Shown one piece after another: positions 299 through 34,263 of a DNA stretch of 64,000 bases. A program made the translations under genes and the position numbers. Each line of letters begins with the position of its first letter. Positions within the stretch are counted from its first letter, which is position 1. The stretch comes from Minisyncoccota bacterium. GTDB taxonomy: Bacteria; Patescibacteriota; Minisyncoccia; Phycocordibacterales; UBA9973. Under the pieces are notes generated by a model. The model was given only the letters and a program-made list of their open reading frames with translations, did not search any database and was not told the DNA's origin. The stretch lies in NCBI GenBank assembly GCA_035299545.1, contig DATGWJ010000021.1:10090-74089 (forward strand). Reading direction: 5' to 3'.

Positions 299-827
299 AG
301 TTGTAATTATCATCCTGAGGATTATTTTCTTTAAAGAATTTTGATTTTCTTAACTGTTCTTCCAAGAACCAAAGAACAATAAATATGAATAAGGTTAGAA
401 TAGTAGTAATTATTGCAATATTAAAAAGTTTAAAACCAGCGGCCATTCCAATACCAGCAGAAACCCAAAGACCCGTGGCAGTAGTAAGACCCATTAATTT
501 TGAATCTTTAGTGAAAATTAATCCAGCTCCAATAAACCCTATACCCACAACAATCTGAGAAATAAGTATTAAAGGATTTAACCCAGAAAAACCAGTATAG
601 AACTTGACCATTTCATTTGAAATAATAACAAACAAAGCAGAACCCATTGATACAAGTGCGTACGTTCGCATTCCTGCTGTTTTGTGCGCCCATACACGCT
701 CTGTACCTATAACCATACCCAATAGTAAAGCAACTAATAGACGAATAACCACATCTACAGTTGAAATATTTAAAAAGTTTTCCATAGTATAACCATTATC
801 CCACAATGCCTCCACCCAAGCAAGCAT
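297..827 (-). CDS. mgtC: MgtC/SapB family membrane protein
   Basis: Motif GMVIGTERVWAHKTAGMRTYALVSMGSALF plus multiple TM helices. The true start is probably the internal Met near 785, since the annotated start overlaps mnmA. Confidence 0.7.
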   Translation of the reverse strand: MLAWVEALWDNGYTMENFLNISTVDVVIRLLVALLLGMVIGTERVWAHKTAGMRTYALVSMGSALFVIISNEMVKFYTGFSGLNPLILISQIVVGIGFIGAGLIFTKDSKLMGLTTATGLWVSAGIGMAAGFKLFNIAIITTILTLFIFIVLWFLEEQLRKSKFFKENNPQDDNYN

Positions 828-18990: not shown

Positions 18991-19101
18991 AAAAACAGGG
19001 TATATATAAAATTTTCTTCGCTTATCCCTCTCCGCTCGCAAGCTCGCTCCGGCGCGCCCACACCTACTCAGAAAATTTCATATATACCCTGTTTCTGTTT
19101 T
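18991..19101 (+). repeat. composite hairpin element, copy B: core identical to copy A, outer stem with compensatory changes
   Basis: The core is 52/52 identical to copy A. The stem AAACAGGGTATATAT.../...ATATATACCCTGTTT carries paired substitutions relative to copy A. Confidence 0.8.
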
Positions 19102-19858
19102 ATATAGTTTGATTTACTAAAATTCCCTCCAATATTTCTAATTCAGATTTTGAATTTGGTTGGAAAATTTCCATCATATTTGAAAGTGGGACACCTTCTA
19201 TTTCCAATCCTTGCTCTTGCGCTAATTTAATTAAGTCAGGAAGATAATATTCTTTTTGAGCATTTTCATTCTTTATCTTATTTATATTATTCCATAACCA
19301 TTCAGCATCAAAAGCATAAATTGCAGGATTAACTTCTTTTATTTCTTTTTCTTCGTCGTTTGCATCTTTAAATTCCACAATTTTCACAATCTTACCATTC
19401 GCATCCCGAACAATTCTCCCTAAATTATAAGCTCCCACTCTCCAATCTTTAAAATCAGGCAATGACACTGTCCCCATTGTAATAACTGCTTTGGACTTTT
19501 CATGAGCATCGATTACATTTGTAATTGTCTCTTTAGAAATGAGTGGTTGATCAGTTGAAATAACAAAGATTGTTTTATGATCAGGGTGAACTTGTGGTTT
19601 TGCAGACATAACTGCATGCCCTGTGCCAAGTTGCTCTTCTTGGTGGGCATATATATTATCCATACCAAAAACTTCAAATATTCTTTCTTTTTTATGTCCC
19701 ACGACAATCACTGGCTTTATAGATAAATCAATTGTCGCTAAAGTATCTAAAATGTGCCTTAAAAATGGTTTCCCTCGAAGCATTGCAAGAGCCTTAGGGT
19801 CGTCGGATTCCATTCTTTTTCCTTTTCCTGCAGCTAAAATAATTATTTGTGTGCTCAT
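19100..19858 (-). CDS. GlmU N-terminal-like sugar-1-phosphate nucleotidyltransferase (no LbH acetyltransferase domain)
   Basis: LAAGKGKRM and LGTGHAV motifs. Confidence 0.65.
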
Positions 19859-19907
19859 ATAATATAAAAAAATTATTTATAATGGCTTTACTTTCTTGTA
19901 AGACCTG

Positions 19908-19980
19908 TGCGCGATACAGGATTCGAACCTGTGACATCGTCAACGTCAATGACGCGCTCTACCAACTGAGCTAACCGCGC
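19908..19980 (-). tRNA. tRNA-Val (anticodon GAC)
   Basis: Folded by hand: acceptor GCGCGGT/ATCGCGC, D arm GCTC/GAGC, anticodon loop TTGACGT, T arm ACAGG-TTCGAAT-CCTGT. Confidence 0.85.
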
Positions 19981-19988
19981 AAATTTTG

Positions 19989-20075
19989 CGGAAGCGGTGA
20001 GATTTGAACTCACGATACGGTCTCCCGTATGCCGCTTTTCGAAAGCGGTGCCTTCAACCGCTCAGCCACGCTTCC
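19989..20075 (-). tRNA. tRNA-Ser (anticodon CGA), long variable arm
   Basis: Acceptor GGAAGCG/CGCTTCC, anticodon loop TTCGAAA, variable stem ATACGG/CCGTAT, T arm GTGAG-TTCAAAT-CTCAC. Confidence 0.85.
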
Positions 20076-20122
20076 ATATAAAACATTAAGTTAGTATACC
20101 GAAACGAGGCTAAATAATCAAT

Positions 20123-20755
20123 TTAAGGTAACTGTCGTACTTCTTTTTGAAGAATGTGACCATCTTCATCTAAGTCGTAAATTAAAACTTGCCCAAAAGG
20201 AAGCTCAACTTTCTCAATATCAGCATCAGAAATATTTTCTATATACTTCATTATTGAGCGACCAGAATTACCATGACATACGACTAAGACATTCTTCCCC
20301 TCTTTTAAAACTGGCAATATTTTATTCAAGAAAAAAGGCACAGACCTCTCGTAAACCATTTTCAAACTTTCTCCATTGGAAATATTGCAATCCCAACCTC
20401 TTCGAATTTTTAAAAATTCTTCTTCCCCTAGTAACTTTTGCATTTCCCATTTATTCTTACCGGTGTAGTCGCCGTAGTCACGCTCGTTTAACTCTTTAGC
20501 TTCTTCGGTAGGAATATCTTTACTTAAAGAACTACCTTCTTGTATGGATTCAAGTGTCTCTTTTGAGCGAACCTGAGCAGAGGTAAAAATCTTATCAAAA
20601 TGAATTCCTTCAACTAACTTTCCCATATTTCTTGCCTGTTCAAAACCAAGTGGAGACAAATGAACATCTACAACTCCAGTCCACTTCCCAAGCTTATTCC
20701 ATTCTGATTCGGTATGCCTTAATAACACAAGCTTTCCTACGTTTTTTGTTTCCAT
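20123..20755 (-). CDS. histidine phosphatase / phosphoglycerate mutase family protein
   Basis: LLRHTESEWN motif (RHG phosphohistidine site). Confidence 0.7.
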   Translation of the reverse strand: METKNVGKLVLLRHTESEWNKLGKWTGVVDVHLSPLGFEQARNMGKLVEGIHFDKIFTSAQVRSKETLESIQEGSSLSKDIPTEEAKELNERDYGDYTGKNKWEMQKLLGEEEFLKIRRGWDCNISNGESLKMVYERSVPFFLNKILPVLKEGKNVLVVCHGNSGRSIMKYIENISDADIEKVELPFGQVLIYDLDEDGHILQKEVRQLP

Positions 20756-20791
20756 TTATATAGTATACAACAAATAGTAAACCCTTCGCTC

Positions 20792-20820
20792 TTGACAAAA
20801 TGAGGCACTTACAATATACT
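20792..20820 (+). promoter_or_regulatory. near-consensus sigma-70 promoter TTGACA-17 nt-TATACT
   Basis: TTGACA at 20792-20797 and TATACT at 20815-20820, with exactly 17 nt between them. Confidence 0.55.
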
Positions 20821-20827
20821 GTGTTCT

Positions 20828-20936
20828 GCTTGGAGAGTTTAGAGAGTATCTCTTCAAAGCCGTTGTTCATTTGTGCTTTGTTCATGTTTTTAGGGTTAAG
20901 GTAAGCGGCTTTCGTTTGACGAAAGCCGCTTTTTTG
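20828..20936 (+). ncRNA. candidate small RNA of about 110 nt (promoter to intrinsic terminator, no convincing ORF)
   Basis: Predicted start just after the TATACT box. It ends at hairpin AAGCGGCTTTCGTTTGACGAAAGCCGCTTTTTTG (20903-20936). No plus-strand gene follows. Confidence 0.35.
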
Positions 20937-20939
20937 TTG

Positions 20940-21237
20940 TCTAAAAAGACAAATAAAAAGCCTCCACGATCAAACGTAGAGGCACATGTAAGGTTAATTA
21001 CCTAGGGAAAGTTTCGTTCAGGTATACGCGCCTACACATTGAACAAATGAAGAAAATTAGATCGGGAAGGTGTACATTGTACCCTATCGCCTTATTTTCC
21101 ATTTCCCAGTGGAACCTTGACTTAATGAGTATATTACTCGGAGGAGGAGGAATGTCAAGGGGAAATTTTTAGTTATCAAGTTCTACAACAAGAGATACTT
21201 CCAGTCTCTTCCCCTTAATGGTATTTAAATATATTGG
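20940..21237 (-). ncRNA. structured 3' region after the RT gene (candidate RT-associated ncRNA)
   Basis: 300 nt with no ORF between the RT stop and a minus-strand terminator (CCTCTACG-TTTGAT-CGTGGAGG plus T run, about 20945-20990). Contains nested helices (AAGGGGA...TCCCCTT; CCTTGAC...GTCAAGG) and a CCTCCTCCTCC tract. Confidence 0.3.
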
Positions 21238-22644
21238 TTAAATTTTTAAGTTATATATATTATTGACTCTATTTATGTGTTTTTGTATAAATTTATATGA
21301 GATAGCTTGTGAAGCTAAAAATCTTTTATGGTGAAATAGAAAATCTGTATGTAAACATTCTTTTGTAATATCTTTTAATAAAGCAAGAAAATACTTTTTT
21401 TGTTTAGTATCTATATTAGAGTATATTTTTTTATAGTCTTTAAAATCAGGAGGGTGGGAAACCAAAAAATCTTTTGTCAAAATAAACTTTATAAGGTCAT
21501 CAATTTTCTTCATCTTTCCATCAGCTTTCTTGAGAGAACTTAGTATAGCTCTAACTAAAGTTCTACCTCCAGACCTCAGGTCTTGCTTGTTCTTTAGATA
21601 AAACTCAATTGCTTTATCTATGTTTTTTGAAGAAACAACATTATTGCTTCCTCCTAGTTGCATAAGTATTTCAAATGCAAAATAATTATTAAATTCAGAT
21701 TTTTTTCTTACATGAACTTTTTTTTGATTCAAATTCAAACCTATCCTCATTAAATAACTAGAGGATCTTGCAATAATGTTTTTTATAACTTCTGTTGATT
21801 TAGCGAATACTACTTGGTCGTCTGCATAACGGAAATATTTTGCTCCTAATTTATCACATAATTCTTTCATTTTTTTGTCATAACTTTGCAGATAGAAGTT
21901 AGCTAGAATACGGGAACATTCTCCAAAGAGATCTTGTGGTAAACCAGCATTTTGATGTACATAAAAATTATTATGCCTATTCCAATATTTAAGAAAATGA
22001 AAAAGTAGATATACAACTTCATTATCTTTTGACTCTATATTGCTTCTTATTATATATTCCAGATGATCCAATCTTACTGAATCATAAAAGTTTGCAATAT
22101 CCAATTCTGCCACATAAGAATTTACATAATCATCAACAGAATATTTATAAATTTTGTTTGTAAAATCACCCCAATTAGCTGCCCATGCTTGTGGGTTAAA
22201 ATTAGTAGATATTTCGTATTCTCCTGACTGTATAAATGTATAATAATCTCCTTCAAATTCTTGTACAGAGATAAATTCTTTATCATAGCTAGATAGATCG
22301 ACTTCTTCCTCTATCTTTGTTTCCCCATTTAAAGACCACCCACCATAAGTTCCCTCTACTCTGTTTTTTGCTATGTATTTTTCTAATTTTCTTGTACAGT
22401 AAAAATAAACACAAAGATCTTCCAATTTAAATACAGGAATTACCCTTAAAACCTGGTTACCCTTATTAGAAATTAAATAATTTTGTGGTGGAGAGGGATA
22501 GTATTCTCTGCTTTTTATTTTTATATACAGATTATTAATTAATCTTTCTTTATTAATTGAGGTATATGGTATTAAAGTATCTTTAAGGTTATGTCTCCAA
22601 AACCCCTTATCTAAACATATTTCCTTAAATTCCTTTTCATTCAT
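21238..22644 (-). CDS. reverse transcriptase (unclassified, 468 aa with a long C-terminal extension)
   Basis: RT motifs 1-7: YPSPPQNYLISNKGNQVLRVIPVF; AELDIANFYDSVRLDHL; GLPQDLFGECSRILANFYL; YFRYADDQVVFA; RIGLNLNQKKVHV. No maturase or endonuclease domain. Confidence 0.85.
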   Translation of the reverse strand: MNEKEFKEICLDKGFWRHNLKDTLIPYTSINKERLINNLYIKIKSREYYPSPPQNYLISNKGNQVLRVIPVFKLEDLCVYFYCTRKLEKYIAKNRVEGTYGGWSLNGETKIEEEVDLSSYDKEFISVQEFEGDYYTFIQSGEYEISTNFNPQAWAANWGDFTNKIYKYSVDDYVNSYVAELDIANFYDSVRLDHLEYIIRSNIESKDNEVVYLLFHFLKYWNRHNNFYVHQNAGLPQDLFGECSRILANFYLQSYDKKMKELCDKLGAKYFRYADDQVVFAKSTEVIKNIIARSSSYLMRIGLNLNQKKVHVRKKSEFNNYFAFEILMQLGGSNNVVSSKNIDKAIEFYLKNKQDLRSGGRTLVRAILSSLKKADGKMKKIDDLIKFILTKDFLVSHPPDFKDYKKIYSNIDTKQKKYFLALLKDITKECLHTDFLFHHKRFLASQAISYKFIQKHINRVNNIYNLKI

Positions 22645-23186
22645 TTAGTATTTTTATCCTTAGAACTTTTTGTTATAGAGCTTTTTGTCCCATCTTCAAA
22701 AGTTCCTTCTAGGGCAATAAAGACATCAGCTGGATGTATGTTTGATTGATCAAAAGCAAGTCTTCTTATTTCTGGCTCAACAAATATCTGAGTTTTGTCT
22801 TTTTTACCTTTTTCTCCAGCGTAGACAACTAATCTTTTTCCTACTTTGGATTCAGTAAGAATTGCTCTGACAAAATACATATTATCTTTTGAATCAGCCT
22901 TGTCTTCTGCAATAGGGATAGCTTCATCATCAAGATTAATAAATTTCATTTTCTTAAACTCTTTGGAATTCAACTTATCAATAATGTAATGTTTTTGAAC
23001 ATTAAATTCTCTAGGAAGAGTATAATTTTTTTCACATTCCTGACATTTTAACCAACAAGCGTGTGGGTTATTTAATATTAAAGAAAGAGAGAGATGATGT
23101 TTAGGGCAAAGAGGTTTTGTATATTCCTCAGATGAGTATTGAACATGCCACTTAATTCCATCTATAATTACATATTGGTCATCCAT
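22641..23186 (-). CDS. zinc-ribbon protein co-transcribed with the RT (181 aa)
   Basis: CPKHH...CWLKCQEC Cys/His cluster. Its stop overlaps the RT start (ATGA), which suggests translational coupling. Confidence 0.6.
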   Translation of the reverse strand: MDDQYVIIDGIKWHVQYSSEEYTKPLCPKHHLSLSLILNNPHACWLKCQECEKNYTLPREFNVQKHYIIDKLNSKEFKKMKFINLDDEAIPIAEDKADSKDNMYFVRAILTESKVGKRLVVYAGEKGKKDKTQIFVEPEIRRLAFDQSNIHPADVFIALEGTFEDGTKSSITKSSKDKNTK

Positions 23187-23192
23187 AATATC

Positions 23193-23546
23193 TTAAAAAT
23201 CATAACCGTTATTACCAAAGTTATAATAACTACTTGTCTGTATACTTTTAACCAAAGTTCCTTTATTTCTACAATCAGGACACTCTTGCTCTTCAAGTTT
23301 AGCCCCTTTTGGAATATCAAAACCCTTTTTTGAGAAATTGCAGTTAGTGCATTCAGTATCTAATTTATAGAATTCTGGGATTTTATCATTCATGAGCAGA
23401 TTATAGCAAATTCTTAATAAAATACAAAAATATTTAGGGTCACTAAGGTATGCTTCGCATTCTATCCCAATGTGGTCACAAGTTACTAAATATTTTTCTT
23501 CAAGTATTCGAAAAATATGTAAGTACTCGCGACCCCAGCTCGGCAA
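23193..23546 (-). CDS. cysteine-rich small protein (117 aa), first gene of the RT operon. Start uncertain, apparently TTG
   Basis: TCDH, ECEAY, CTNC and CPDC pairs. Paralogous segment shared with ORF 25201..25440. Confidence 0.45.
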   Translation of the reverse strand: MPSWGREYLHIFRILEEKYLVTCDHIGIECEAYLSDPKYFCILLRICYNLLMNDKIPEFYKLDTECTNCNFSKKGFDIPKGAKLEEQECPDCRNKGTLVKSIQTSSYYNFGNNGYDF

Positions 23547-23625
23547 TTTTTCTGCTGAAAAATTATGCCTGTGCTTTCACAAAAGCGAAAAAGACTGGAG
23601 CAGTCCAGTCTTTTTAAATTCATGC

Positions 23626-23662
23626 TTTTGTGACCCTAGGGGTTAATAATTGGGGACGGATT
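23626..23662. repeat. degenerate copy of the tRNA-Glu 3' half (att-like footprint), copy 1
   Basis: TTTTGTGACCCTAGGGGTTAATAATTGGGGACGGATT versus the tRNA plus-strand AATTTGTGACCCTACCGGGAATCGAACCCGGATT. Preceded by hairpin GACTGGAGCAGTCCAGTC plus T run, as the tRNA is. Confidence 0.6.
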
Positions 23663-23812
23663 GTGGAGGATATAAAGGTATTTATAAGCTATGTTGATTT
23701 CTTGGTATATAAACACAATAGAAAGCTTGACATATCTACTTTTTTGTGCTAATCTCTAGAAAAGAACTTATTTGAAAATAAACTAATATATTCACTAATA
23801 AATGACAAAGGT

Positions 23813-24577
23813 ATGGGACACAGAACACTTAAAAGGGTGCCATTAAATTTTAATGCACCACTAAACAAAGTTTGGAAGGGATATTTAAATCCGTTTCCAG
23901 GACCACGAGAATGTAATCATTGCAAAGGTAGTGGGTATAATAATGCTACTAGGAAAATTGCAGATGATTATTATGGCCATTACTCTCAAAGAAGTCGTCG
24001 CTGGTGTGATAACATTACACAGGATGAAGTGCAAGCCCTCGTTGATGCTGGTCGTCTTTGGGATTTTACCAGAGTTCCCCTTAATGAAAAACAACTGAAA
24101 GATGTTTTGCCTAATGGCTGGCTTCCGTATGATAATGGAAAAATTCCTACAGCAGAAGAAGTTAACGCTTGGAGTGTTAAAGGTATTGGCCACGACACTT
24201 TTAATAAATCTATTTTAATTGAAACAAGAGCCAAACGTTTACATGTCTTCGGTTATTGTCCTCATTGTAAAGGAAAAGGAGAAACAAAACTTCCAAGGAA
24301 GATGAAAAAACGTTATCAAAACTGGCGGAAACATGATCCTCCACAAGGAGAAGGATTCCAGTTGTGGTCAACTACAACAGGAGGATCACCATTTAGCCCT
24401 GTTTTTGAAAATGCTGAACAACTTGCAGTATGGTGTGCAGATAATGCTACTATTTTTGCAGATTATAAACTAACTGCCAAAGAGTGGCTCCAGGTATTTG
24501 CAGATGAACATGTTCTTGATCTAGAAAGTTCCTGTATAATTGTAGTGAAAAAAGAAGCAGAATTTTGCTTAAATTAA
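23813..24577 (+). CDS. hypothetical protein with two CxxCxGxG zinc-finger motifs
   Basis: CNHCKGSGY and CPHCKGKGE. Own TTGACA-17 nt-TAATCT promoter at about 23737-23765 and a hairpin terminator at 24601-24632. Confidence 0.55.
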   Translation: MGHRTLKRVPLNFNAPLNKVWKGYLNPFPGPRECNHCKGSGYNNATRKIADDYYGHYSQRSRRWCDNITQDEVQALVDAGRLWDFTRVPLNEKQLKDVLPNGWLPYDNGKIPTAEEVNAWSVKGIGHDTFNKSILIETRAKRLHVFGYCPHCKGKGETKLPRKMKKRYQNWRKHDPPQGEGFQLWSTTTGGSPFSPVFENAEQLAVWCADNATIFADYKLTAKEWLQVFADEHVLDLESSCIIVVKKEAEFCLN

Positions 24578-24663
24578 TTGTTCATAAAAATTATTATTCT
24601 CTCCAATGGTTATAAGCCATTGGAGTTTTTTTATTTAAAAACACCCTCTTTTGAGAGTTTTTT

Positions 24664-24701
24664 AATTTGTGACCCTAGAGGTTAGTAGTTGGGGACAGAT
24701 T
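24664..24701. repeat. degenerate copy of the tRNA-Glu 3' half (att-like footprint), copy 2
   Basis: AATTTGTGACCCTAGAGGTTAGTAGTTGGGGACAGATT, followed by a TTGACA-17 nt-TATAGT promoter for the next ORF. Confidence 0.6.
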
Positions 24702-24786
24702 TTAGAAAATATAAGGGATTTTGGGTTTTATATTGACAATTAAATTTAAATCTGTTATAGTGTAATAAATTTTAAATTATACAATA

Positions 24787-25155
24787 ATGAGCAATAAAAT
24801 TGTGCACACAGTAATGACACAGGAAGGTCCCCGGTACAGAGTATGGTCAGATAATAGTGATAGATATGTAAGTCAAATCTTAACAGAAGATGAGCTTATG
24901 TTATTTTCAATTTTAATGGAAATAGAACCACTTCTGATAAATCATTTCTATGATCCCAAATATACTGGGGTAGTACTTGGTCACTGGATTCAGCGAGGAG
25001 AAGTTCTTAAGGATTGGAAGGTTGAATCAGAATTTATACCTGCTGATGATAAAGAGCAGGAAAAATATTCCAATATGGCAAAATCACAAAAAGAATTTCT
25101 ATTAAAAGCTGCCAATCTCTGGGAAGAATTCTTTCTTAATGGAAACATTAAGTGA
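24787..25155 (+). CDS. hypothetical protein (122 aa)
   Basis: ORF with an upstream consensus-like promoter; no motif recognised. Confidence 0.45.
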   Translation: MSNKIVHTVMTQEGPRYRVWSDNSDRYVSQILTEDELMLFSILMEIEPLLINHFYDPKYTGVVLGHWIQRGEVLKDWKVESEFIPADDKEQEKYSNMAKSQKEFLLKAANLWEEFFLNGNIK

Positions 25156-25200
25156 ATAACAACAAATCAAACGAGTATAACTTTTAATAGTGTACTCGTT

Positions 25201-25440
25201 TTATTTTACGTAACGATATACTGGAATTGCAAGTACACTTATTAAACCTAATAGGTTAGGGTCACTTTGGTATGCTTCTTCGCATTCATATTTTACGTGG
25301 TCACAAGTTAGACCGGGACCGCGAGTACGCTTATCGGTCATTACATGACCAGTACACCTTTTCCATTCGTGAGTACACTCACATGGAAAAGGTTTTCGAT
25401 TCCCGGACGCGAGATATGCAGATATCTCGCTTAGGGTCAC
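25201..25440 (-). CDS. cysteine-rich small protein, paralog of ORF 23193..23546
   Basis: GLTCDHVKYECEEAYQSDPNLL aligns to YLVTCDHIGIECEAYLSDPKYF. Chosen over the overlapping plus-strand ORF 25272..25460 because of this paralogy. Confidence 0.45.
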   Translation of the reverse strand: MTLSEISAYLASGNRKPFPCECTHEWKRCTGHVMTDKRTRGPGLTCDHVKYECEEAYQSDPNLLGLISVLAIPVYRYVK

Positions 25441-25481
25441 AAATTAAAAACTCCGACTGAAAGGTCGGCTTTTTTAATTTG

Positions 25482-25553
25482 TGACCCTACCGGGAATCGA
25501 ACCCGGATTACCGGCTTGAAAAGCCGATGTCCTAACCGTTAGACGATAGGGCC
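25482..25553 (-). tRNA. tRNA-Glu (anticodon UUC)
   Basis: Aligns position by position to E. coli tRNA-Glu: GGCCCUAUCGUCUAACGGUUAGGACAUCGGCUUUUCAAGCCGGUAAUCCGGGUUCGAUUCCCGGUAGGGUCA. Confidence 0.85.
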
Positions 25554-25768
25554 AAAATAATTACTAATTAACAATTAAATCAGTAATTGGTAATCATTAA
25601 TTACTTGTGAGTATAGCATTTTTGCTAAAATAATCAAATATTATGAGCGTTTTACCCTTGAAAAGTATGGATATTCTAGCTTGACTTTTTAGATAAAAAG
25701 TGATATAATATACACAAATAACTTGAAAATATAATAAAAATAAATAACGGCCTAGGAGGGCTTACATA

Positions 25769-26266
25769 ATGTCAACTCATACAAAATCACCTACTGACTC
25801 ACATGGAGAAACTAGTACCCCTAATGTAAGTACATCAAAAGTGTTCGCAATTTTTATAGGTATATTTTTTTCTATTATTATTATTATTTCAATAATAATA
25901 ATAATTAATAAGCCTAAAAAACTTAGAAATAACGTAAAAGTTATAGAACAAACAATGGTTAGTAATGTTTCAAAAACTTATGATCTTTCAGATATAAGTT
26001 ATGATTCATTATTAACTTTTGAAGTAAAGAATGGTGAGTTAATAAAAGTAGAACTTACTAATGATTGGTGCCCAATGTGGTCATCTGGAAAAATTAAAAC
26101 CTATGACGACAATAGAATTGAAAGAATTCTTGAGGGATCCAAATACATTAGAGGTCCTATAAGTACCCCTTCTCAAAATTACTTTTTCGTAAATAACAGT
26201 GCCTTTAAAATTACTGTTAAAATAGGAAGATGTAAATCAAAAACTGACTGTAAATTCAATCTTTAA
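25769..26266 (+). CDS. hypothetical membrane-anchored protein
   Basis: Poly-Ile TM helix. TTGACT-17 nt-TATAAT promoter and AGGAGGG Shine-Dalgarno upstream. Confidence 0.5.
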   Translation: MSTHTKSPTDSHGETSTPNVSTSKVFAIFIGIFFSIIIIISIIIIINKPKKLRNNVKVIEQTMVSNVSKTYDLSDISYDSLLTFEVKNGELIKVELTNDWCPMWSSGKIKTYDDNRIERILEGSKYIRGPISTPSQNYFFVNNSAFKITVKIGRCKSKTDCKFNL

Positions 26267-26276
26267 TCTTACTAAA

Positions 26277-27296
26277 ATGGAATTTGTATATAACTTAGGA
26301 ACGTTAATTATTCTATTCTTAATATTAGTTATTCTTAAACTAATATTACCACTAGTGTCATACAAAATGAAAACTTCCTTAATAATAGCAATATGTGGAG
26401 CAATATTATTTGCGGCTAGATTTATTTATCTTCTAATAGGAGAATTTAATTTATGGCCATTAATATTTTGTGTCATTTGTTGTGTTTTTATTTACAAAGG
26501 AAGTAAAACTGTTGCATTTAAAACAACAACTGGAGTATTTTCAAAGATTACTCAAAAGTATGTTGGGCATATGGATCAAGGATCTTTAAATTGGGCAGAC
26601 CCAATGTTTGAAGTAGTAACTATAAATGTTGATGGTTCTCCAAATATTTCTCTTGATTTACAGGAGTTAAAAATAGAAGTATTGTCTACTCCAGATATGC
26701 ACACTAAAGTCCGAGGGATAAGAGCTAAGGTAAAAAACATAGTGTTTATGCTAGAAATCATAGAAGATGAAATGCCTTATTTATTTGAAATTGAAGGAGG
26801 TGGAGAAACAATAAAGAAGCGAATTCTTTCTTTTATTAATCTTTTTTTTCTTGATGAAATTGGAAAAATAGATCCAGTTGATTTAGATGAAGATAAAGGA
26901 GAAATATTAAAAAAATTAGCTTCTCGATTAAAAAGATCAGTAAACTCTTTCTGTAAAAAGAATCATTATCCTTACAAAATTCCTAATGGTTCAATAGCCA
27001 CTATTGGTGACACAGAACTTGAAACTAAATACTATGAAGTATTAGCAAAAAAGGAATTCACCAAACTTGAACAAGATGGTTTTGATGTAGAAGCTGAAAG
27101 GATTCGTGAAAGACTTCTTACTCTTGGTAATGCACTTTTACCAACAGCAACAGACAACGAAAAGTTAAAAGCTGCTATGGTTGCTATTAAAATAACACCA
27201 AAAACAATCGAAGAAAAAACTTTTGGTGTTAATACAGAAATATCTGCTCTCTTAAAAGAATTAGCAGATATATTAAAGAATAAATTTGTACCTTAA
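26277..27296 (+). CDS. hypothetical polytopic membrane protein with a soluble C-terminal domain
   Basis: Two N-terminal TM helices; a distant SPFH-like flavour only. Confidence 0.45.
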   Translation: MEFVYNLGTLIILFLILVILKLILPLVSYKMKTSLIIAICGAILFAARFIYLLIGEFNLWPLIFCVICCVFIYKGSKTVAFKTTTGVFSKITQKYVGHMDQGSLNWADPMFEVVTINVDGSPNISLDLQELKIEVLSTPDMHTKVRGIRAKVKNIVFMLEIIEDEMPYLFEIEGGGETIKKRILSFINLFFLDEIGKIDPVDLDEDKGEILKKLASRLKRSVNSFCKKNHYPYKIPNGSIATIGDTELETKYYEVLAKKEFTKLEQDGFDVEAERIRERLLTLGNALLPTATDNEKLKAAMVAIKITPKTIEEKTFGVNTEISALLKELADILKNKFVP

Positions 27297-27357: not shown

Positions 27358-27678
27358 CTATTGCATTTCTTGGATATTAATATTATTGTTATCTATTTGA
27401 ATTCTATGTTCTCCTATAGTGTTTAATATAATGTTCATAATTCCAAAAACTGAAACCATCACGAACATTCCTATTATCCCCCACAGCATATGCTTCTTAC
27501 TTGAATTACGAATTTCTTCGTTATCTGGATTAAAAAGATATTGTAAGATGCCATAGATAAAATATACGACAGCTAGAGCGAACAATAAAACAATTATAGG
27601 ATTTATAATTACTCTATTAACACTTCTAACTAGTGTCTCAATATTTGCTTCAGCTGTTGGTATAATCTCTAGAGCCAT
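27358..27678 (-). CDS. small two-TM pilin-like protein (TrbC/VirB2-like), paralog 1 of 5
   Basis: Shared core with neighbours: VVYFIYGILQYLFNPDNEEIRNSSKKHMLWGIIGMFVMVSVFGI. Confidence 0.45.
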   Translation of the reverse strand: MALEIIPTAEANIETLVRSVNRVIINPIIVLLFALAVVYFIYGILQYLFNPDNEEIRNSSKKHMLWGIIGMFVMVSVFGIMNIILNTIGEHRIQIDNNNINIQEMQ

Positions 27679-27681
27679 AGA

Positions 27682-28056
27682 TTAGTAACAATAAATACCA
27701 GCGTCAGGATTTGGAATACATGGGATATCTTCTTGTCTTAGTTGTTCAGGTCCAACTCCGAATGTATTTGTGATAAGTGATAGAATTCCCCAGAATGCTA
27801 CGATAACGAACAATCCAATAAGACCATTTATTATCTTACTTCTTGCATTCTTCTTAGCCTCTTCATCAGAAGACAAAGTAAACTGTATAACTCCCCAAAT
27901 AAAGTAAACAACTGCAAGAGTAATAAGTACAGGGATAGCATATCCGAGCAATCTTGCAATATTACCAAGGATACTGAATGCATTTACGCCATCTGCAGCA
28001 AGTGCAAGCATAGGCATAGAACCGAACACAACTCCTAACGAAATAATTTTCTTCAT
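27682..28056 (-). CDS. small two-TM pilin-like protein, paralog 2 of 5 (signal peptide ending LALA)
   Basis: VVYFIWGVIQFTLSSDEEAKKNARSKIINGLIGLFVIVAFWGI. Confidence 0.45.
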   Translation of the reverse strand: MKKIISLGVVFGSMPMLALAADGVNAFSILGNIARLLGYAIPVLITLAVVYFIWGVIQFTLSSDEEAKKNARSKIINGLIGLFVIVAFWGILSLITNTFGVGPEQLRQEDIPCIPNPDAGIYCY

Positions 28057-28177
28057 AAATAAATCTTTACTAATAAAAGATAATTCTTATAATTTTGTCC
28101 TTTAAACCGACCAGAGTAAAAAAGACATTAACTTTATAACCTTATTGTACCATAAAAGAACAAACTATTTAACAATT

Positions 28178-28498
28178 CTATTGCCCAGGAAGCTGAGGAA
28201 TAGTGTTTGAGATTTCAAATGTTCCAGTGAGGATAGCCACAAGCCCCCACATAGACAACATCACGAACAAACCAATTAACCCTCCGATAATAAAACTTCT
28301 TCCCTTCTTTCTCTTTTCTTCGTTCTCAGGATTTATGTAATACTGTATTACTCCCCATATGAACGCAACCGTTGCAAGTGCAAATAATAGTGGCACTACT
28401 GCTTTATACAAGAAACAACTTGCCCAGTTAACTATGCTAGTTAAATCTTGCATTGATTTACCTGAACAAACCCCGGAAACTGTAACATTATTATCCAT
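28178..28498 (-). CDS. small two-TM pilin-like protein, paralog 3 of 5
   Basis: VAFIWGVIQYYINPENEEKRKKGRSFIIGGLIGLFVMLSMWGL. Confidence 0.45.
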   Translation of the reverse strand: MDNNVTVSGVCSGKSMQDLTSIVNWASCFLYKAVVPLLFALATVAFIWGVIQYYINPENEEKRKKGRSFIIGGLIGLFVMLSMWGLVAILTGTFEISNTIPQLPGQ

Positions 28499-28518
28499 AA
28501 TTAATTCTTATTTTAATA

Positions 28519-28971
28519 TTATGTTGTTTTTTTAATATCTTCGACCGTTTTACCTATAGCGTCTGCTATTACAAATGCCCCCAGGAGTAACGCCGCGCCT
28601 ATGAGCGTATAAACTAGGGAGTTCTTTGCTTTTGTAAGTTTCTCAGAGTTGCCTTGTGCTTGTACAAATAGAAAGCCAGTATAGATAATAGCAAGTGCGA
28701 CAATTGGTATGCCTATGTAGAGAACTATATTTATGATTTCTTTTATAAAAGAAGGAATATCTTTAATGTTATCACCTAAAGGATTTTCTATTTTAGTTGT
28801 TATGTTTGTGCCTGTATTGTCTACTCCTGCAGAATTATTATTAGTATTATCAACTCCATCTGGAGCAGCAAAAACCACTGGAGCTAATAACATAACTGCA
28901 AAGACTATTATAAAACTATATTTTAAAATTCCCGATAATATGGTGTATTTTTTTGTTTTAAAAATTTTCAT
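28519..28971 (-). CDS. small two-TM pilin-like protein, paralog 4 of 5 (signal peptide, N-rich linker)
   Basis: IIYTGFLFVQAQGNSEKLTKAKNSLVYTLIGAALLLGAFVIA. Confidence 0.45.
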   Translation of the reverse strand: MKIFKTKKYTILSGILKYSFIIVFAVMLLAPVVFAAPDGVDNTNNNSAGVDNTGTNITTKIENPLGDNIKDIPSFIKEIINIVLYIGIPIVALAIIYTGFLFVQAQGNSEKLTKAKNSLVYTLIGAALLLGAFVIADAIGKTVEDIKKTT

Positions 28972-29102
28972 CCCGTTAGAGATAGGAATTCTTTAGATTT
29001 CCGTATCTTACTAATTATAATTAATAATATAGACCTAATAAAACATTTTCATTTATCTTAATAATATCACATACACATCTCTAACGGGATTATTAATAAT
29101 AA

Positions 29103-29498
29103 CTAACTTAAGAACGAGTCCCCTGTAAATCCAAGCGCCGCAAGTATCGACTTTACTATAAGCCAAGCTGCGAGAGCGATAACATAGCCAATAAGAGCAT
29201 TTTTAAATATATGCTTTGCTTTTGAGACATTCTCCGAACTCCCTCCAGATGAGAGGTAAAGCCATCCAGCATAAATTATAATAAGAGCAAAAATAGGAGT
29301 GGCAAGAGTTATAAGTATGAAGGAAATAATATTATTTATTATTGTCATTACCATATTAAAATCGCAAGGATCATCAAAACCACCACTATTATTTACAATT
29401 GTATTACACTCTGGCACCAACTTTGCTCCGAATGATATTAAAGGAACAGAGAATATTATGGCAAATCCTAGAACGAATGGAATGACTTTTTTAATCAT
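29103..29498 (-). CDS. small two-TM pilin-like protein, paralog 5 of 5
   Basis: IIYAGWLYLSSGGSSENVSKAKHIFKNALIGYVIALAAWLIV. Confidence 0.45.
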   Translation of the reverse strand: MIKKVIPFVLGFAIIFSVPLISFGAKLVPECNTIVNNSGGFDDPCDFNMVMTIINNIISFILITLATPIFALIIIYAGWLYLSSGGSSENVSKAKHIFKNALIGYVIALAAWLIVKSILAALGFTGDSFLS

Positions 29499-29500
29499 AA

Positions 29501-30820
29501 TTATTTCTTAAGTAGAAGTTCAAGCTGACCTTGAGCTTTATTTATGGACTCACTCACCGACAAATTATTTGATAATATATTTTCTATTAACTCTTTGAAA
29601 ATAGCATCACTTTGAGGTTTATTTGGATCTAGCCAAGACCTGGATATAAGAGCCGAATTAAAGAATGTAAACAAATAAGGGTTAGCTGGCTTTTCAGATA
29701 AAACAGCTCGTGAAGTAGGAGGCAAAGAAAGAGTAATACTTAAATCCTTTGCGACACTCCCCTGACTGAGAATTCCTGCTACACCAAAAGCTGAACTTAG
29801 ATTACTAGATTTCTTATTTATAACAATTGCATAAATTTCTCCATAAGTACGCTTTGTCTGCGAATTTTTAATTTGAGGAATTTGAGTCACATCATAACTT
29901 AAATTTGGATTCACAGACTGTATTTTAAACAACTCACTAGCTCTGCCTATATAGAATGCTAGCTTGCCCCCAGTGAACATATCTAGAGAGTTAGGAAGTG
30001 AACGATTCCATGAATACGCAGTATTGGAAGGATTAGAAAATTCAGTAAAGAATTTTACGACTGCTTCCATTGGACTTACAGAAAGTTTAGAAGGATTACT
30101 ATTTAATAGTGAAATATAACTTGTAGTGTTATTCGTAGCATCCACAGACCTCTTCACTATTCCGTTATTATTCTGAAGAAGTAATGTCGCTAATATATCT
30201 TTCGCATTATTAATATTGCCGTACTGACCAAGTGCTATCATACTTTGGCTTATAGTGCCAATATTATCTCTCTTAGTTAAAGTAGAATTGAGTGGGAATA
30301 ATTCATCCCAAGTCTTAAGCGGAGAAACAATTCCTTCATTAGATAAAATATCTTTGTTGTAGTACAGAACCATAGGGTCTACAACCAAAGGTAAACCTAC
30401 AACACCTTCACTGTCGAGGTAAATATCTGCTCCGTCTATAAATGAATCGCGGAATGTTTTCTCTGGATAGCTGGCATAAGGAATTTTGTATATAAAATTA
30501 TTATTCTTTACTACCATATCAGGAGTTATAATGAACAAATCAGGGCCAACTCCGTTTGCAAATGCTTCTATTAATTCTTGCTGATAGGAAGATGAATTTT
30601 TCTTGATGTAAGTAACACTGAGCTCTTTATTAGCATCATTCATGCCGTCGATAATGTCATACATTTCTGAACTAGGAAATGTCCCCCAAATAGTCACCTT
30701 GCCTTGGGGAGCGTTAGTATTCGATGAAATACCTAAATCAATTACTCCTGAGAATATTAAAACTCCAAAAACGAAAAATGATAGAAATATAGCGACAAGT
30801 ATTGTCTGGAAATTACTCAT
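29501..30820 (-). CDS. membrane-anchored extracellular solute-binding-protein-like protein (439 aa)
   Basis: N-terminal anchor and size consistent with a family-1 SBP fold; low-confidence family call. Stop and start abut the pilin-like array. Confidence 0.4.
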   Translation of the reverse strand: MSNFQTILVAIFLSFFVFGVLIFSGVIDLGISSNTNAPQGKVTIWGTFPSSEMYDIIDGMNDANKELSVTYIKKNSSSYQQELIEAFANGVGPDLFIITPDMVVKNNNFIYKIPYASYPEKTFRDSFIDGADIYLDSEGVVGLPLVVDPMVLYYNKDILSNEGIVSPLKTWDELFPLNSTLTKRDNIGTISQSMIALGQYGNINNAKDILATLLLQNNNGIVKRSVDATNNTTSYISLLNSNPSKLSVSPMEAVVKFFTEFSNPSNTAYSWNRSLPNSLDMFTGGKLAFYIGRASELFKIQSVNPNLSYDVTQIPQIKNSQTKRTYGEIYAIVINKKSSNLSSAFGVAGILSQGSVAKDLSITLSLPPTSRAVLSEKPANPYLFTFFNSALISRSWLDPNKPQSDAIFKELIENILSNNLSVSESINKAQGQLELLLKK

Positions 30821-31340
30821 ATGTAAATATTATACCATAATGGTGAACACTAGTGGAAATTTTTTCTTCAAATCGGAAGCCTCTTTTTTCAAAAAGTTCT
30901 CTTGCCTCGGCTTCTGGCATCACATGGTGCGGAGCTGGACCCATTCCTCCAAAGGAATCACTCCAATCCACAAGAAGAATTTTCCCACCTTTTCTAAGTA
31001 CACGCTTAGCTTCATCTATAATCCCAATCTTATCTTCCACTTGGAAAAGTACATTGGAAATTATCACAACATCCATAGAATTATCCAATAATTTAGTCCC
31101 TCCACGGCGTTCTATGTCGCCCCAAATACAATCTACGTTGTGTATTCCTAATTCTTTTAAATCTGATTCAAGTTTTTTTACTAAATCTTTCTGAACTTCA
31201 ATAGCATATACCTTTCCACTGTTGCCTACACGAGGACTAATGGCTTTACAATAGAAGCCAGTCCCAGCTCCGAAGTCTGCTACACGCATACCTTCTCTTA
31301 ACCCTAAATGTAGAATATTTGTTTCTGGTTTAGTAAACAT
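30813..31340 (-). CDS. class I SAM-dependent methyltransferase
   Basis: VADFGAGTG SAM-binding motif I. Confidence 0.7.
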   Translation of the reverse strand: MFTKPETNILHLGLREGMRVADFGAGTGFYCKAISPRVGNSGKVYAIEVQKDLVKKLESDLKELGIHNVDCIWGDIERRGGTKLLDNSMDVVIISNVLFQVEDKIGIIDEAKRVLRKGGKILLVDWSDSFGGMGPAPHHVMPEAEARELFEKRGFRFEEKISTSVHHYGIIFTYE

Positions 31341-31380
31341 ATTTATAGGTATATTATACTACAAATAAAATAAACTAGAA

Positions 31381-31483
31381 AGTCCGCTATATGTTCAAAA
31401 TTTCTGAGTAGGTGTGGGCGCGCGCCGAATCCGGTGGATTCGGTAGGGATAAGCGAAGAAATTTTGAATATATAGCGGAGTTT
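31381..31483 (-). repeat. composite hairpin element, copy C (core in reverse orientation; inner palindrome GCCGAATCCRSCGGATTCGGC)
   Basis: Core revcomp is TTCGCTTATCCCTACCGAATCCACCGGATTCGGCGCGCGCCCACACCTACTC. Flanked by stem AGTCCGCTATATGTTCAAAATTTCT / AGAAATTTTGAATATATAGCGGAGT. Confidence 0.8.
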
Positions 31484-31492
31484 CTACAAAAA

Positions 31493-33940
31493 CTATAAGA
31501 ATGTAATAGAAGCAATACTATCCCCTGGGCGGAGCTTCATCACGGTCACACCTTGCGTCTGGCGACCAGAAGTAGGAAGTGAATCCAAACTTACACGGAT
31601 AACTTGCCCTTTCTGAGACACCGCGATAATCTCACTTTCATCACTTACTATTTTCGCAACTATAAGCTTACCTGTCTTAGGAGTAACTTTTGCTGTCTTT
31701 ATACCAGAGCCACTTCTCTTCTGTGTTTTGTATTCTTTAATATTAGTTTTCTTACCAAGGCCATTTGCCGAGAGTGTGAGAATGGATAATGAATTCTCTC
31801 CTTTTGGAATACGATCCACTCCAATGACAAAGTCCCCTTTACCGAGCTTCATAGCACGCACACCTCCAGCACTGCGACCCATTTCTCGGACATCTGTCTC
31901 TTTGAATCTTATTGATTGTCCAAGCGCTGTGGCAAGCATCACATCATCACCTTTTGATATTGGAAGAACAGCTTGGAGTTCATCATCCTTATCGAGTCGG
32001 ATAGCTATCAATCCACTTCTTCGGACATCTTTGAAGCTCTCAGCTCCCACTTTCTTTGTCACGCCCATCTTGGTGACCATCATAAGTGTCTCTACTGTTT
32101 TCTTTGTCTCTTTATCTATAGGCAAAATAGAAGTCACCTTCTCTTCAGCTTCAAGAGAAATGAAGTTCATAATTGATTTACCTTTTGTTGCACGCTTACC
32201 TTCAGGAATATCATACATCTTTATCTGATATGCTTTTCCAAGATTAGTGAAGAATAGCAAATCCGAGTGGGTATTTGCGGATATAAGCATGGTTACGAAG
32301 TCTTCTTCTTTTGGCTCAATATCTATTACACCTACACCTCCGCGCTTCTGTGTGCGGTATTCAGAAGGGTCTGTACGCTTCACATATCCACCCTTAGTGA
32401 ATACGAGTACTGACTCTTTCTCTGGGATAAGGTCTTCTTCGTTTATTGCTTTCACTCCTCCTTTTATAATACGAGTGCGTCTTACATCAGAATATTTTTC
32501 TTTAATATCAATAAGTTCATCTGATATAACTTTCATCATTTTCTTTGGACTTGCAAGCAATGCCTCCAATTCTTTAATTAATTCTTGCTTTTCTTTCAAC
32601 TCAAGCTCCACATTTTTACGTTCAAGTCCAGCAAGTTTCTGCAACTTCATTTCAAGAATAGCTACAGCTTGAAGTTCAGAGAATTTAAATTCTTTCATCA
32701 AGTTTGCCTTAGCCACTTGGGTATCTTTAGATGCACGAATTACAGAAATAACTCGGTCAATATGATCAAGTGCTTTCTTGAGTCCTAGAAGAATATGCTC
32801 TCTTTCTTTTGCTTTTCGTAAATCGTACTCAGTTCGGCGACGAACAACTATCTGACGGTGTGTTATAAATTCACTAAGTAAACTCTTGAGCGAAAGCGTC
32901 TGAGGTACGCCATCCACAAGAGCCACGAGGTTGAAATTGAAAGATTGCTCGAGCTGTGTGTGCTTGTAAATGTAATTCAAAACTTTCTGAGGAATAACTC
33001 CACTCTTAAGGTCTATAACAATGCGAATATCTTTTGTAGATTCATCACGAAGACCTTTTACTCCTTCTAATTTTTTCTCTTGAATAAGAACTGCAATAGA
33101 CTCAATAAGAGCTGACTTATTTACTCTGTAAGGAATAGAAGTAATAATGATTTGGAAAGTATCACTCTTTTGTTCTACTATTTCGGCTTCTCCGCGAGTT
33201 ACAACACCACCACGTCCTGTAGAGTAAGCGTGAAGTAAATCATTTTGTCCATAAACTATTCCACCAATAGGAAAATCTGGACCTTTAATGTATTCCATTA
33301 ATTCTTCAGTGCTTGCATCTTTGTTTTCTATTAAGTGAACAGTAGCATCTACAACTTCACCAAGATTATGAGGAGGAATATTTGTAGCCATACCCACTGC
33401 AATACCCAGAGTTCCATTTAGGAGTAAATTAGGAACAGCTGTAGGCAGAACTACTGGTTCTTTGCGAGTCTGATCATAGTTCGGACGAAAATCCACTGTT
33501 TCTTTCTCAAGATCAAGAAGTAATAGTGATGAGAGTCGAGACATTTTGGCCTCTGTATAACGCATAGCAGCTGCTCCATCTCCGTCGATAGAACCAAAGT
33601 TTCCTTGTCCATGAATAAGAGGATAGCGATAAGAGAAATCTTGAGCCATTCCCACCATAGAATCGTAAACAGCCACATCACCGTGTGGGTGATACTTTCC
33701 GAGTACATCTCCGACTACCGCAGCACTTTTACGAAAACGACTTTGAGAAGTTAAACCCATTTCATACATCGCATACAAGATACGTCTATGAACTGGCTTT
33801 AATCCATCACGAACATCAGGAAGAGCACGGTCAGTAATAACCGACATCGCATAGTCGATGAACGAATCTTTCATCTCTGTACTAATTTCTACAGAAACGA
33901 CATTTATATGATTGTCTTTTTTTTCTTCTTCTTTAGCCAT
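31493..33940 (-). CDS. gyrA: DNA gyrase subunit A
   Basis: [28 protein letters not shown]; 815 aa. Confidence 0.95.
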
Positions 33941-33941
33941 A

Positions 33942-34259
33942 TTATTGATATTCTACCGGAATTAAATCTATCTGCTTTTCTACTTCCACTTCTTTCTTTT
34001 CTTCTTCTTTCTTTATTGAAGGAATTTTCCCAACACTTGCAGTGACATTATTATAAGTGTTCGCAATACTTTGTCCAAATAATTCAAATGGCTTTATCTC
34101 TTCTTCTACAGGTGGAGTACTTTCTTTACTTAATTTCTGGCCAATGCTACTTATCCAAACAAACCCCACAAAAGACATACACAATATCAAAGACCCTACA
34201 AGTATTTGCTTGCGAGTGTCTTCCGATTTAGATTGTAATTTTCTTATATAAGTACGCAT
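33942..34259 (-). CDS. hypothetical small membrane-anchored protein
   Basis: Single TM helix and an acidic/Lys-rich tail. Confidence 0.4.
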
Positions 34260-34263
34260 AAAT

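Follow-up and report, generated by a model that had tools for sequence, protein, structure and literature searches.

Several described systems join a folded sequence, a tRNA gene or a small accessory gene in ways that bear on the locus treated here. Integron attC sites and the sites of the Xer-exploiting CTX phage are strand-specific attachment sites of folded single-stranded DNA (ssDNA) on which a recombinase acts in trans; tRNA-like structured RNAs include the tRNA-like domain of tmRNA, YrlA and the viral tRNA-like structures; and repeats of the repetitive extragenic palindromic (REP) or miniature inverted-repeat transposable element (MITE) kind are multi-copy, hairpin-rich intergenic sequences of ~150-200 nt that spawn spurious open reading frames (ORFs). 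The bridge RNA of IS110-family insertion sequences (IS) is said to have been described by Durrant et al. in 2024 as a structured non-coding region with target-matching segments. Tycheposons are tRNA-targeting integrative elements that integrate successively at one tRNA site (bioRxiv 10.1101/2020.12.28.424599). Here we analyse an AT-rich (~34% GC) stretch of 64,000 nt from a Minisyncoccota bacterium (contig DATGWJ010000021.1), referred to as the window, in which two ORFs beside a tRNA-Glu gene, ORF117 and ORF79, share a DNA block that a first-pass annotation took for a module of paralogous mini-proteins. In our reading the module is non-coding and belongs to folded elements of two families, type 1 and type 2, which would be the tRNA-proximal attachment modules of small integrase-less units sitting at tRNA 3' ends; to this reading as a whole we give a probability of about 0.6.

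The nearest analogues of the locus are tRNA-anchored island arrays such as tycheposons and folded attachment sites such as attC and the CTX attP. With tycheposons the locus shares inserts lying between a full tRNA gene and partial copies of its 3' end, older units pushed outward, cargo of an accessory or defence kind and an empty site in a relative. Unlike tycheposons, its units are only 0.2-1 kb long and carry neither integrase nor replication genes, they open with a folded module that is conserved and covarying and includes an antisense tRNA end, and their core repeat can be as short as 9 nt. The likeness to integron attC and CTX attP sites consists of short single-gene cassettes in arrays, a folded strand-specific site and a G-U (G-T) bias that would be compatible with folding as ssDNA. 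In contrast to integrons, the locus showed neither IntI nor attI nor Pc, each cassette brings its own promoter and terminator and faces away from the tRNA, and the folded module matches the end of a tRNA gene, not R/L boxes. An integron cassette was ruled out on these grounds, namely that no integrase was found and that the cassettes carry strong promoters of their own.

Like the IS110 bridge RNA, the elements are structured non-coding regions with segments matching both strands of the target; unlike it, the matched segments are ~20 nt long and, as far as their sequences show, are mutually complementary antisense and sense copies rather than split guide loops. One element (annotated as protein P0005) lies ~140 nt upstream of an IS110 DEDD transposase on six contigs (L003-L008), all of which represent one locus, and there the transposase gene (L003, 8590-9612) is inserted in the -10 region of the promoter behind a tRNA-Lys element. 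Since L048 and L027, two relatives, lack the IS but still have both the element and the promoter behind it, the copy in L003 is an independent insertion, and because no transposase recurs among ~50 loci a bridge RNA was also rejected. The elements resemble tRNA-like RNAs in their acceptor-like and T-stem-like helices of tRNA-derived sequence and in a T-loop-like pentaloop of helix P4, and differ from them in having a ~70-nt conserved domain at the T-loop position, a 5' strand perfectly complementary to the 3' strand and trailer of the neighbouring tRNA, a single element at each tRNA locus, and no match in Rfam. With REP and MITE sequences they share all the traits given above, but each copy is tailored to the adjacent tRNA and holds a fixed position relative to it. 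A literature search found no description of such tRNA-flanking elements in Patescibacteria and returned only unrelated group I introns at anticodon-loop position 35/36. The structured elements of this locus, customised to individual tRNAs and lying at the boundaries of small cassettes, are apparently an undescribed family.

The shared block and the overlying reading frames

Both ORFs are present on the minus strand (coordinates of all features are collected in Table 1), and both stand next to tRNA-Glu-type repeats as had been noted, ORF117 beside a direct copy (core R1) and ORF79 beside an inverted copy (25432-25450) near the tRNA-Glu gene itself. Nucleotide alignment of the two loci bears out a repeat at the DNA level, of ~55 nt with roughly 85% identity and one 3-nt indel, including the common 14-mer GTGGTCACAAGTTA, which is exact at 23472-23485 and 25297-25310. 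The proposed protein module, TCDH..EC(E)EAY.SDP, could be aligned by BLASTP (pairwise E = 1e-5); as to its extent, 12 of 24 residues are identical.

That both ORFs are genuine paralogous Cys-rich, zinc-binding mini-proteins with a common TCDH/ECEAY module would agree with the BLASTP value, with an indel of exactly 3 nt and with the C-terminal 66 aa of ORF117, which are a real zinc-ribbon protein (ORF66). Nevertheless, all 12 conserved residues share all three codon positions, with no synonymous difference, and the differences are clustered in blocks, which indicates conservation at the nucleotide and not at the protein level. The indel falls in the loop of a mini-hairpin (GAA vs GAAGAA), and both start codons lie inside structural repeats, the TTG of ORF117 (23546) within a covarying hairpin, hpA, and the GTG of ORF79 (25440) within the inverted tRNA-end repeat. 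No frame is kept in the homologs: "TCDH..ECEA" is the translation of the conserved type-2 tail in all of them, preceded by a stop codon 6-9 codons upstream of "TCDH" in 5 of 14 and followed by divergence immediately after ECEA, and the two halves of the type-1 core are in different frames in 11 of 47 elements.

Database relatives point the same way. The sole relative of ORF117 (P0001, 66 aa, 95% identical) starts at an internal ATG (23393), so that the N-terminal part is covered by no database protein despite the wide occurrence of the underlying DNA. In the contigs that carry it (L001 and L002) DNA homology extends from the gene to ~45 nt upstream, promoter included, and breaks off exactly at GTGACCCTAAA, the edge of block copy 1. 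The five database "homologs" of ORF79 have in common only ~31 residues (SGNRKPFPCECTHEWKRCTGHVMTDKRTRGP), corresponding to a ~95-nt structured core; this stretch is hairpin-dense, with stems that vary in a compensatory way among contigs, while the flanks diverge and the TCDH module is absent. Support from profile models is likewise lacking for the module: the Pfam matches of ORF117 were below threshold and confined to its C-terminal 66 aa, outside the module, ORF79 had no Pfam match, and neither ORF had one in PADLOC. Real proteins over the module were accordingly rejected, and the mini-protein reading is highly improbable. Judged from sequence comparison, ORF117 exceeds the 66-aa gene by 51 spurious N-terminal codons (23394-23546), and ORF79 together with the block region of ORF117 represents chance frames over folded non-coding elements. 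Such frames have a practical consequence, since gene callers repeatedly make hypothetical proteins from the elements (P0002-P0006; three "families" of overlapping ORFs), and masking is warranted; spurious ORFs over the type-1 element, in several frames and on both strands, make up the three largest "protein families" among the neighbours.

The inverted 12-mer that had been reported next to the 14-mer holds in part. The two sequences, GACCGCGAGTAC (25317-25328) and GTACTCGCGACC (23523-23534), contain an exact inverted 9-mer, CGCGAGTAC, present in 2 copies in the window against 0.06 expected, but as a whole they are reverse complements at 10 of 12 positions, and they do not follow the 14-mer directly (gaps of 6 nt in copy 2 and 37 nt in copy 1). 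In copy 1 the 12-mer and the 14-mer are the two strands of one long-range helix (LS), which accounts for the inverted repeat I3 detected there, and in copy 2 the 12-mer is made of hairpin P5 and the 3' strand of the T-stem of a type-1 element. A small inverted segment thus finds no support in the two copies. Its more general form would be an invertible switch, in which inverted tRNA-Glu 9-mers (23435/23630, and 25257 or 25432/25481) flank segments of ~200 bp flipped by a recombinase and the 12-mer is the trace of an inversion. The 9-mer in question, TAGGGTCAC, consists of the last 9 nt of tRNA-Glu and is indeed clustered within 2 kb in three direct (23630, 24669, 25481) and three inverted copies (23435, 25257, 25432), one of the latter in each block, and CGCGAGTAC stands in opposite orientations near both blocks. 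Against it, the intervening segments are structured elements that keep the same orientation in ~14 (type 2) and 51 (type 1) independent loci, the 12-mers map to different helices, and no invertase was found, all of which makes a switch very unlikely.

The other suggestion, a recombined locus, agrees with our results: copy 1 is, as far as comparison with homologs can tell, the tail in its native type-2 element, and copy 2 is the same tail placed behind a more widespread type-1 element, so that copy 2 is a chimera. The tail follows there directly on the 3' strand of the type-1 T-stem, and L054 has a similar, weaker join. Copy 2 also forms the junction to the 122-aa cargo gene. nnAGTGACCCTAA follows the tail only in the two window copies, with cargo starting immediately behind it. 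In the closest relatives of the RT operon, L001 (~250-500) and L002 (~80-330), the type-2 tail is replaced upstream of the 66-aa gene by some four 52-nt units in tandem (ACCAAAATnnTTTTTGGTCTCnnAAnnTGGTAAATATA), possibly iterons, promoters or non-coding RNA (ncRNA).

Two families of folded elements

By the pattern of base changes, the block is part of covarying elements that fold in one strand only and are tied to tRNA 3' ends. For the type-1 element, which is ~130 nt long, a covariance model (R1) matches the window copy at 25285-25459 on the minus strand. A search with a single 20-mer of the core, CGAATGGAAAAGGTGTACTG, found it in 51 GTDB genome stretches, all of Patescibacteria (labelled Paceibacteria, Nomurabacteria and "Saccharibacteria"), often with several elements per genome. 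Same-strand tRNA genes lie ~80-270 nt upstream of 39 of 57 elements and represent 19 anticodons.

The anatomy of type 1 is constant. The tRNA 3' end (S1) is followed by an AT-rich trailer, a terminator hairpin and a mirror image of trailer and acceptor 3' strand (the antisense copy, AS), which together make a perfect palindrome specific to each locus; such palindromes occur likewise behind other tRNAs in L003, L009, L012 and many GTDB loci. After AS come a variable, covarying hairpin P1 and the reverse complement of the T-stem 3' strand and T-loop, then the conserved core with P3 (with a tandem-GA internal loop) and P4 (UGUAA loop), the optional hairpin P5 (AAGCGTACTCGCGG) and, at the 3' end, a sense copy of the T-stem 3' strand, extended in many loci to the whole acceptor 3' strand (S2). 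Many elements are flanked by the tRNA end and its sense copy (e.g. L044, L021, L063). Over an alignment of 49 homologs 84.8% of cells are paired vs 67.6% after shuffling, and covariation amounts to 0.443 vs 0.137 (reached in 0 of 500 shuffles), with slid controls at 0.06-0.10; P1 and P4 are 99% paired and show double changes at every pair. In the helices independent of the tRNA, G-U outnumbers A-C by 34 to 8, which indicates that the folding strand is the tRNA-sense strand, either as RNA or as ssDNA. The AS copy fits its own tRNA with a mean longest exact match of 9.8 nt, compared with 5.7 nt for non-cognate tRNAs.

A search of Rfam 15 over 19000-27000 (E <= 1) returned tRNAs only, which ruled out a known RNA family. 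The distribution is patchy, which speaks for insertion: tRNA-Val(GAC) has an element in L013 and none in the window, and in L083 tRNA-Arg(CCU) and tRNA-Gly(CCC) have none.

Model R1 gives no match at block copy 1, which was consequently rejected as a type-1 element and belongs to a separate family. The block pattern TTGTGACCAC-N9-GAATGCGAA occurs in 20 metagenome contigs, ~14 of them with the same ~190-nt architecture as 23449-23636, and several of these homologs are placed after a complete tRNA-Glu. RNAalifold on the 14 type-2 sequences gave 47 pairs, 27 with compensatory changes, among them the helix LS, in which GGTC.GCGAGTACT pairs with AGTAACTTGTGACC around an invariant G-U. The tail, as a consensus of the 14 homologs, consists of the LS 3' strand (TAACTTGTGACC) and a mini-hairpin of the GCGAAGC type. 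The antisense copy of type 2 extends over no more than the trailer and the final few bases of the tRNA, and the G-U excess on the tRNA-sense strand is found here too.

GCGAAGC lies inside the invariant tail hairpin of all type-2 tails (in the window at 23457-23463 and 25279-25288). As DNA, GCGAAGC forms an unusually stable mini-hairpin, and its presence hints that folding as ssDNA is to be considered beside RNA.

Further traces of type 1 were seen in the window. A variant element at 61921-62124 on the minus strand (model R1, 59 bits, E = 7e-11) has P1, P5 and a complete sense tRNA 3' end (TCCCTACCCACGGAGCA) together with a type-2-like central domain of two AT-rich hairpins; upstream of it there is no intact tRNA, only the remnant "TTCGGAGCC" before the terminator palindrome. 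Within mnmA (796-1974, minus strand), which is a genuine gene for a tRNA 2-thiouridylase (Pfam PF03054, 3e-72), the opposite strand holds a partial core match (1517-1579, plus strand; 33.8 bits, E = 2e-5; AAAAGGTGTACTG..CCTGTAAGG) that could be due to chance or be an element-derived in-frame insertion. Besides, the intact tRNA gene in L003 (7960-8120), L009 (2465-2650) and L072 (upstream of tRNA-Glu) has in front of it two or three tandem partial copies of the tRNA 5' half that reach as far as the anticodon arm, so that these tRNA loci carry repeats on both sides.

The tRNA-Glu island

Direct repeats of the tRNA-Glu 3' end (cores T1, R2 and R1) flank the inserts in the window, and the only two copies of a 57-nt arm found there (GTCCCCAAnTAnTAAC), homologous to each other, each abut such a core. 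The tRNA-Glu gene and the type-2 element are 1.84 kb apart. In L083, a 115-kb contig from the same aquifer system, the type-2 element comes immediately after tRNA-Glu (L083 169-357 vs window 23636-23449, 86% identity); this contiguity represents the empty site, at which 1.84 kb of integrase-less units have been inserted at the tRNA-Glu 3' core. The island of the window is thus, on this comparison of sequences, an insertion at the tRNA-Glu core. Two units, X and Y, were delimited. Unit X was defined by direct repeats D1 and D7, an arm search and a promoter scan, and is absent from the syntenic L083; the palindrome at its tRNA-proximal end was recognised from the inverted repeats I2 (92% complementary) and I8 (19 nt at 100%) and from a terminator scan. 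Unit Y and the type-1 unit in L032 have starts that are 95% identical, and unit Y therefore looks like a unit minus its folded part.

An independent locus, L065, has a like layout, in the order tRNA-Glu, element, core, type-2 element, reversed 87-aa gene, arm, core, type-2 variant, reversed 90-aa gene, arm and core. By analogy, this is the pattern that would be expected from successive site-specific integrations at one tRNA. The L065 arms (2068-2098, 2750-2778; GGTTCCAATTCCGTATAAT), located next to repeated tRNA-Glu cores, differ from those of the window and resemble decayed T-arms with a TATAAT insertion.

Table 1. Features of the tRNA-Glu locus in window coordinates
Feature	Position	Strand	Description
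UG13b-class reverse transcriptase (RT)	21238-22644	-	PADLOC RT_UG13b 4.2e-126, covering 1-461 of 468 aa; Pfam RVT_1
ORF181	22641-23186	-	downstream of block copy 1
ORF117	23193-23546	-	117 aa, TTG start
ORF66	23193-23393	-	real gene, 66-aa zinc-ribbon protein; own promoter TTGTAT..TATAAT; first gene of the RT operon
Shared block, copy 1	23434-23485	-	type-2 tail, then inverted tRNA-Glu 9-mer (23435-23443)
Type-2 element, tRNA-Glu-linked	23449-23626	-	RNAalifold on 14 sequences
Type-2 tail mini-hairpin			ATGC-GAA-GCAT
Type-2 LS 3' strand	23474-23487		overlaps the 14-mer
Type-2 hpB	23490-23518
Type-2 LS 5' strand	23522-23534		corresponds to GTACTCGCGACC
Type-2 hpA	23542-23569		contains the TTG "start" of ORF117
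Type-2 partial antisense copy	23577-23587
Type-2 terminator hairpin	23588-23615
Core R1 (S-type)	23627-23638	+	marks where, ancestrally, the tRNA-Glu 3' end stood with respect to the type-2 element
Inserted unit Y	23639-24657		trailer and hairpin, 254-aa gene, 57-nt arm (23627-23683); structured part apparently lost
254-aa cargo gene	23813-24577	+	own strong promoter and terminator
Core R2 (S-type)	24658-24677	+	20 nt of tRNA-Glu 3' end and trailer, 100% identical to 25470-25489
Inserted unit X	24678-25480		trailer and terminator, type-1 element, tail, 122-aa gene, 57-nt arm (24666-24722) abutting core R2
122-aa cargo gene	24787-25155	+	own promoter (24733-24761) and own terminator
ORF79	25201-25440	-	79 aa, GTG start
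Shared block, copy 2	25256-25311	-	type-2 tail (TAACTTGTGACCAC, N9, GAATGCGAAGAAGCATACC) fused behind the type-1 element, then inverted tRNA-Glu 9-mer (25257-25265)
Type-1 element, tRNA-flanking	25312-25440	-	covariance model R1, 159.9 bits; alignment of 49 homologs
Type-1 T-stem 3' strand	25313-25318
Type-1 P5	25321-25330
Type-1 P4	25336-25350
Type-1 P3	25357-25392
Type-1 antisense T-arm	25401-25406
Type-1 P1 hairpin	25409-25430
Type-1 AS copy	25432-25440		inverted copy of the tRNA 3' end
Palindrome, 26-nt arms	25432-25489		tRNA 3' end, trailer, bidirectional terminator hairpin (25453-25468), inverted trailer and tRNA 3' end
Core T1 (S-type)	25481-25489		last 9 nt of tRNA-Glu, TAGGGTCAC on the minus strand
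tRNA-Glu(UUC)	25481-25553	-	ARAGORN; Rfam tRNA model 65.5 bits

Attachment modules or resident RNAs

In the reading that we prefer, the elements would be the tRNA-proximal attachment modules of small units without an integrase of their own, which would enter tRNA genes at their 3' ends through site-specific recombination and in doing so duplicate the tRNA end. New units would stack beside the tRNA and shift older ones outward, the cargo would start right after the tail (the 122-aa gene, the 254-aa gene and the UG13b RT operon, each with its own promoter), and the recombinase would act in trans. This part of the reading, that the elements are attachment modules of units mobilised in trans and that "solo" elements without cargo are minimal units or remnants, is more tentative, and we put its chances somewhat below even.

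Several observations weigh against attachment modules. Many type-1 elements are at orthologous positions across species (tRNA-Lys, tRNA-Tyr), with an AS copy that co-varies with the tRNA, a pattern that a functional RNA of long residence would explain at least as well as a mobile unit. No integrase or recombinase was found in units X and Y, in the RT cassette or in the 20 window ORFs scanned, nor did one recur near ~50 elements; neither an excised nor a circular form turned up; and viral contigs gave 0 matches to the type-1 20-mer, to the module and to the 57-nt arm, on which ground an origin from phages or plasmids was rejected as well. Such arrays are not the regular setting of the homologs of the 254-aa cargo protein, and the inverted tRNA-Glu 9-mer after the tail is confined to the two copies of this window. 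Finally, the attachment reading would have to account for the pairing of one conserved core with 19 different tRNA ends, for which correction by template switching across the palindrome might be considered. A search for a linked protein by all-against-all clustering of the ORFs within +/-3.5 kb of ~55 elements yielded only housekeeping synteny and spurious ORFs, and no such protein was retained.

It can also be the case that the type-1 and type-2 elements are stable chromosomal ncRNA genes, each paired with a single tRNA and serving as a mimic of the cognate tRNA or as an antisense RNA on it, on its precursor or on its gene, with the block as the 3' tail of the RNA. The orthologous positions include five tRNA-Tyr loci with a ParB neighbour and five tRNA-Lys loci with the same downstream promoter, and among these orthologs the AS copy follows the acceptor sequence of the tRNA. 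Covariation together with the G-U excess on the tRNA-sense strand, the lack of a recombinase nearby, an acceptor/T-stem minihelix that AS and sense copies could form according to the folding model, and, read from the alignment, a T-loop-like UGUAA loop in P4 and a k-turn-like tandem-GA internal loop in P3 would all suit such an RNA. On the other hand, the sigma-70 scan passed no promoter for an element in the window, the element lies downstream of an apparently good terminator, Rfam has no match to it, the sense acceptor-strand copy is decayed in many loci, and the type-1 element of the window is inside DNA absent from the syntenic L083 and hence arrived with the insert. We regard resident RNAs as the less likely origin of the elements. 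The same holds for the corollary for the cassettes, that they would land beside the elements only because tRNA 3' ends are general hot spots of integration.

The attachment reading may be taken one step further. The elements might be a programmable base-pairing attachment device, acting as RNA or ssDNA and comparable in function to an integron attC site or an IS110 bridge RNA. It would steer a host enzyme acting in trans so that small cargo, defence systems such as the UG13b RT included, is inserted or exchanged behind essentially any tRNA gene; this would be a previously undescribed, integrase-less cassette system of Patescibacteria, and it is a speculative and distinctly unlikely extension. 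The function of the element family could, in short, be that of an attachment module or of a tRNA-linked RNA. What stands apart from this choice is that the reduced genomes of Patescibacteria hold a multi-copy, strongly covarying family in which each copy is fitted to the 3' end of the neighbouring tRNA, and that at tRNA-Glu its members border small cargo cassettes, one of them with a predicted defence RT. As attachment modules, the elements would explain the exchange of small accessory genes in genomes with few recognisable mobile elements; as RNAs linked to tRNAs, they would add a new class of regulators or mimics, each specific to its tRNA.

Cargo and neighbouring genes

Both cargo genes of the units face away from the tRNA, and their own promoters and terminators are strong. 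The 254-aa protein belongs to an unannotated family of 388 homologs (database clusters), with 37-60% identity among the 120 listed; the few named sources are metagenome-assembled genomes of Parcubacteria or Paceibacterota. Three genomic contexts of homologs were checked, one of which adjoins a tRNA. The protein itself has two CxxCxGxG-like motifs and a weak match to the DnaJ zinc finger.

Behind the type-2 tail stands a tight operon on the minus strand (21238-23393), composed of ORF66 (with a CxxC..CxxC pattern), ORF181 and the UG13b RT. Both small proteins are Cys-rich, and neither has a Pfam match above the curated cut-off or a PADLOC family. A defence role of the UG13b class has been predicted, not shown (PMC9226505). 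No convincing distal attachment repeat was found for the RT cassette, the only find being CCCTAGG at ~21002. Between the RT gene and a histidine-phosphatase gene a non-coding stretch of 480 nt (20756-21237) contains a strong hairpin with a T-run (~20906-20936) and GC-richer segments such as GGGAAGGTGTACATTGTACCC, and Rfam gave weak sub-threshold matches only over it; it could hold an ncRNA of the RT system or the far boundary of the RT cassette.

On the other side of tRNA-Glu (27358-34416, and likewise in L032 and L009) there is a conserved syntenic block of small membrane proteins, which includes an 815-aa ORF. One homolog has a weak match to a pilin of the type IV secretion system.

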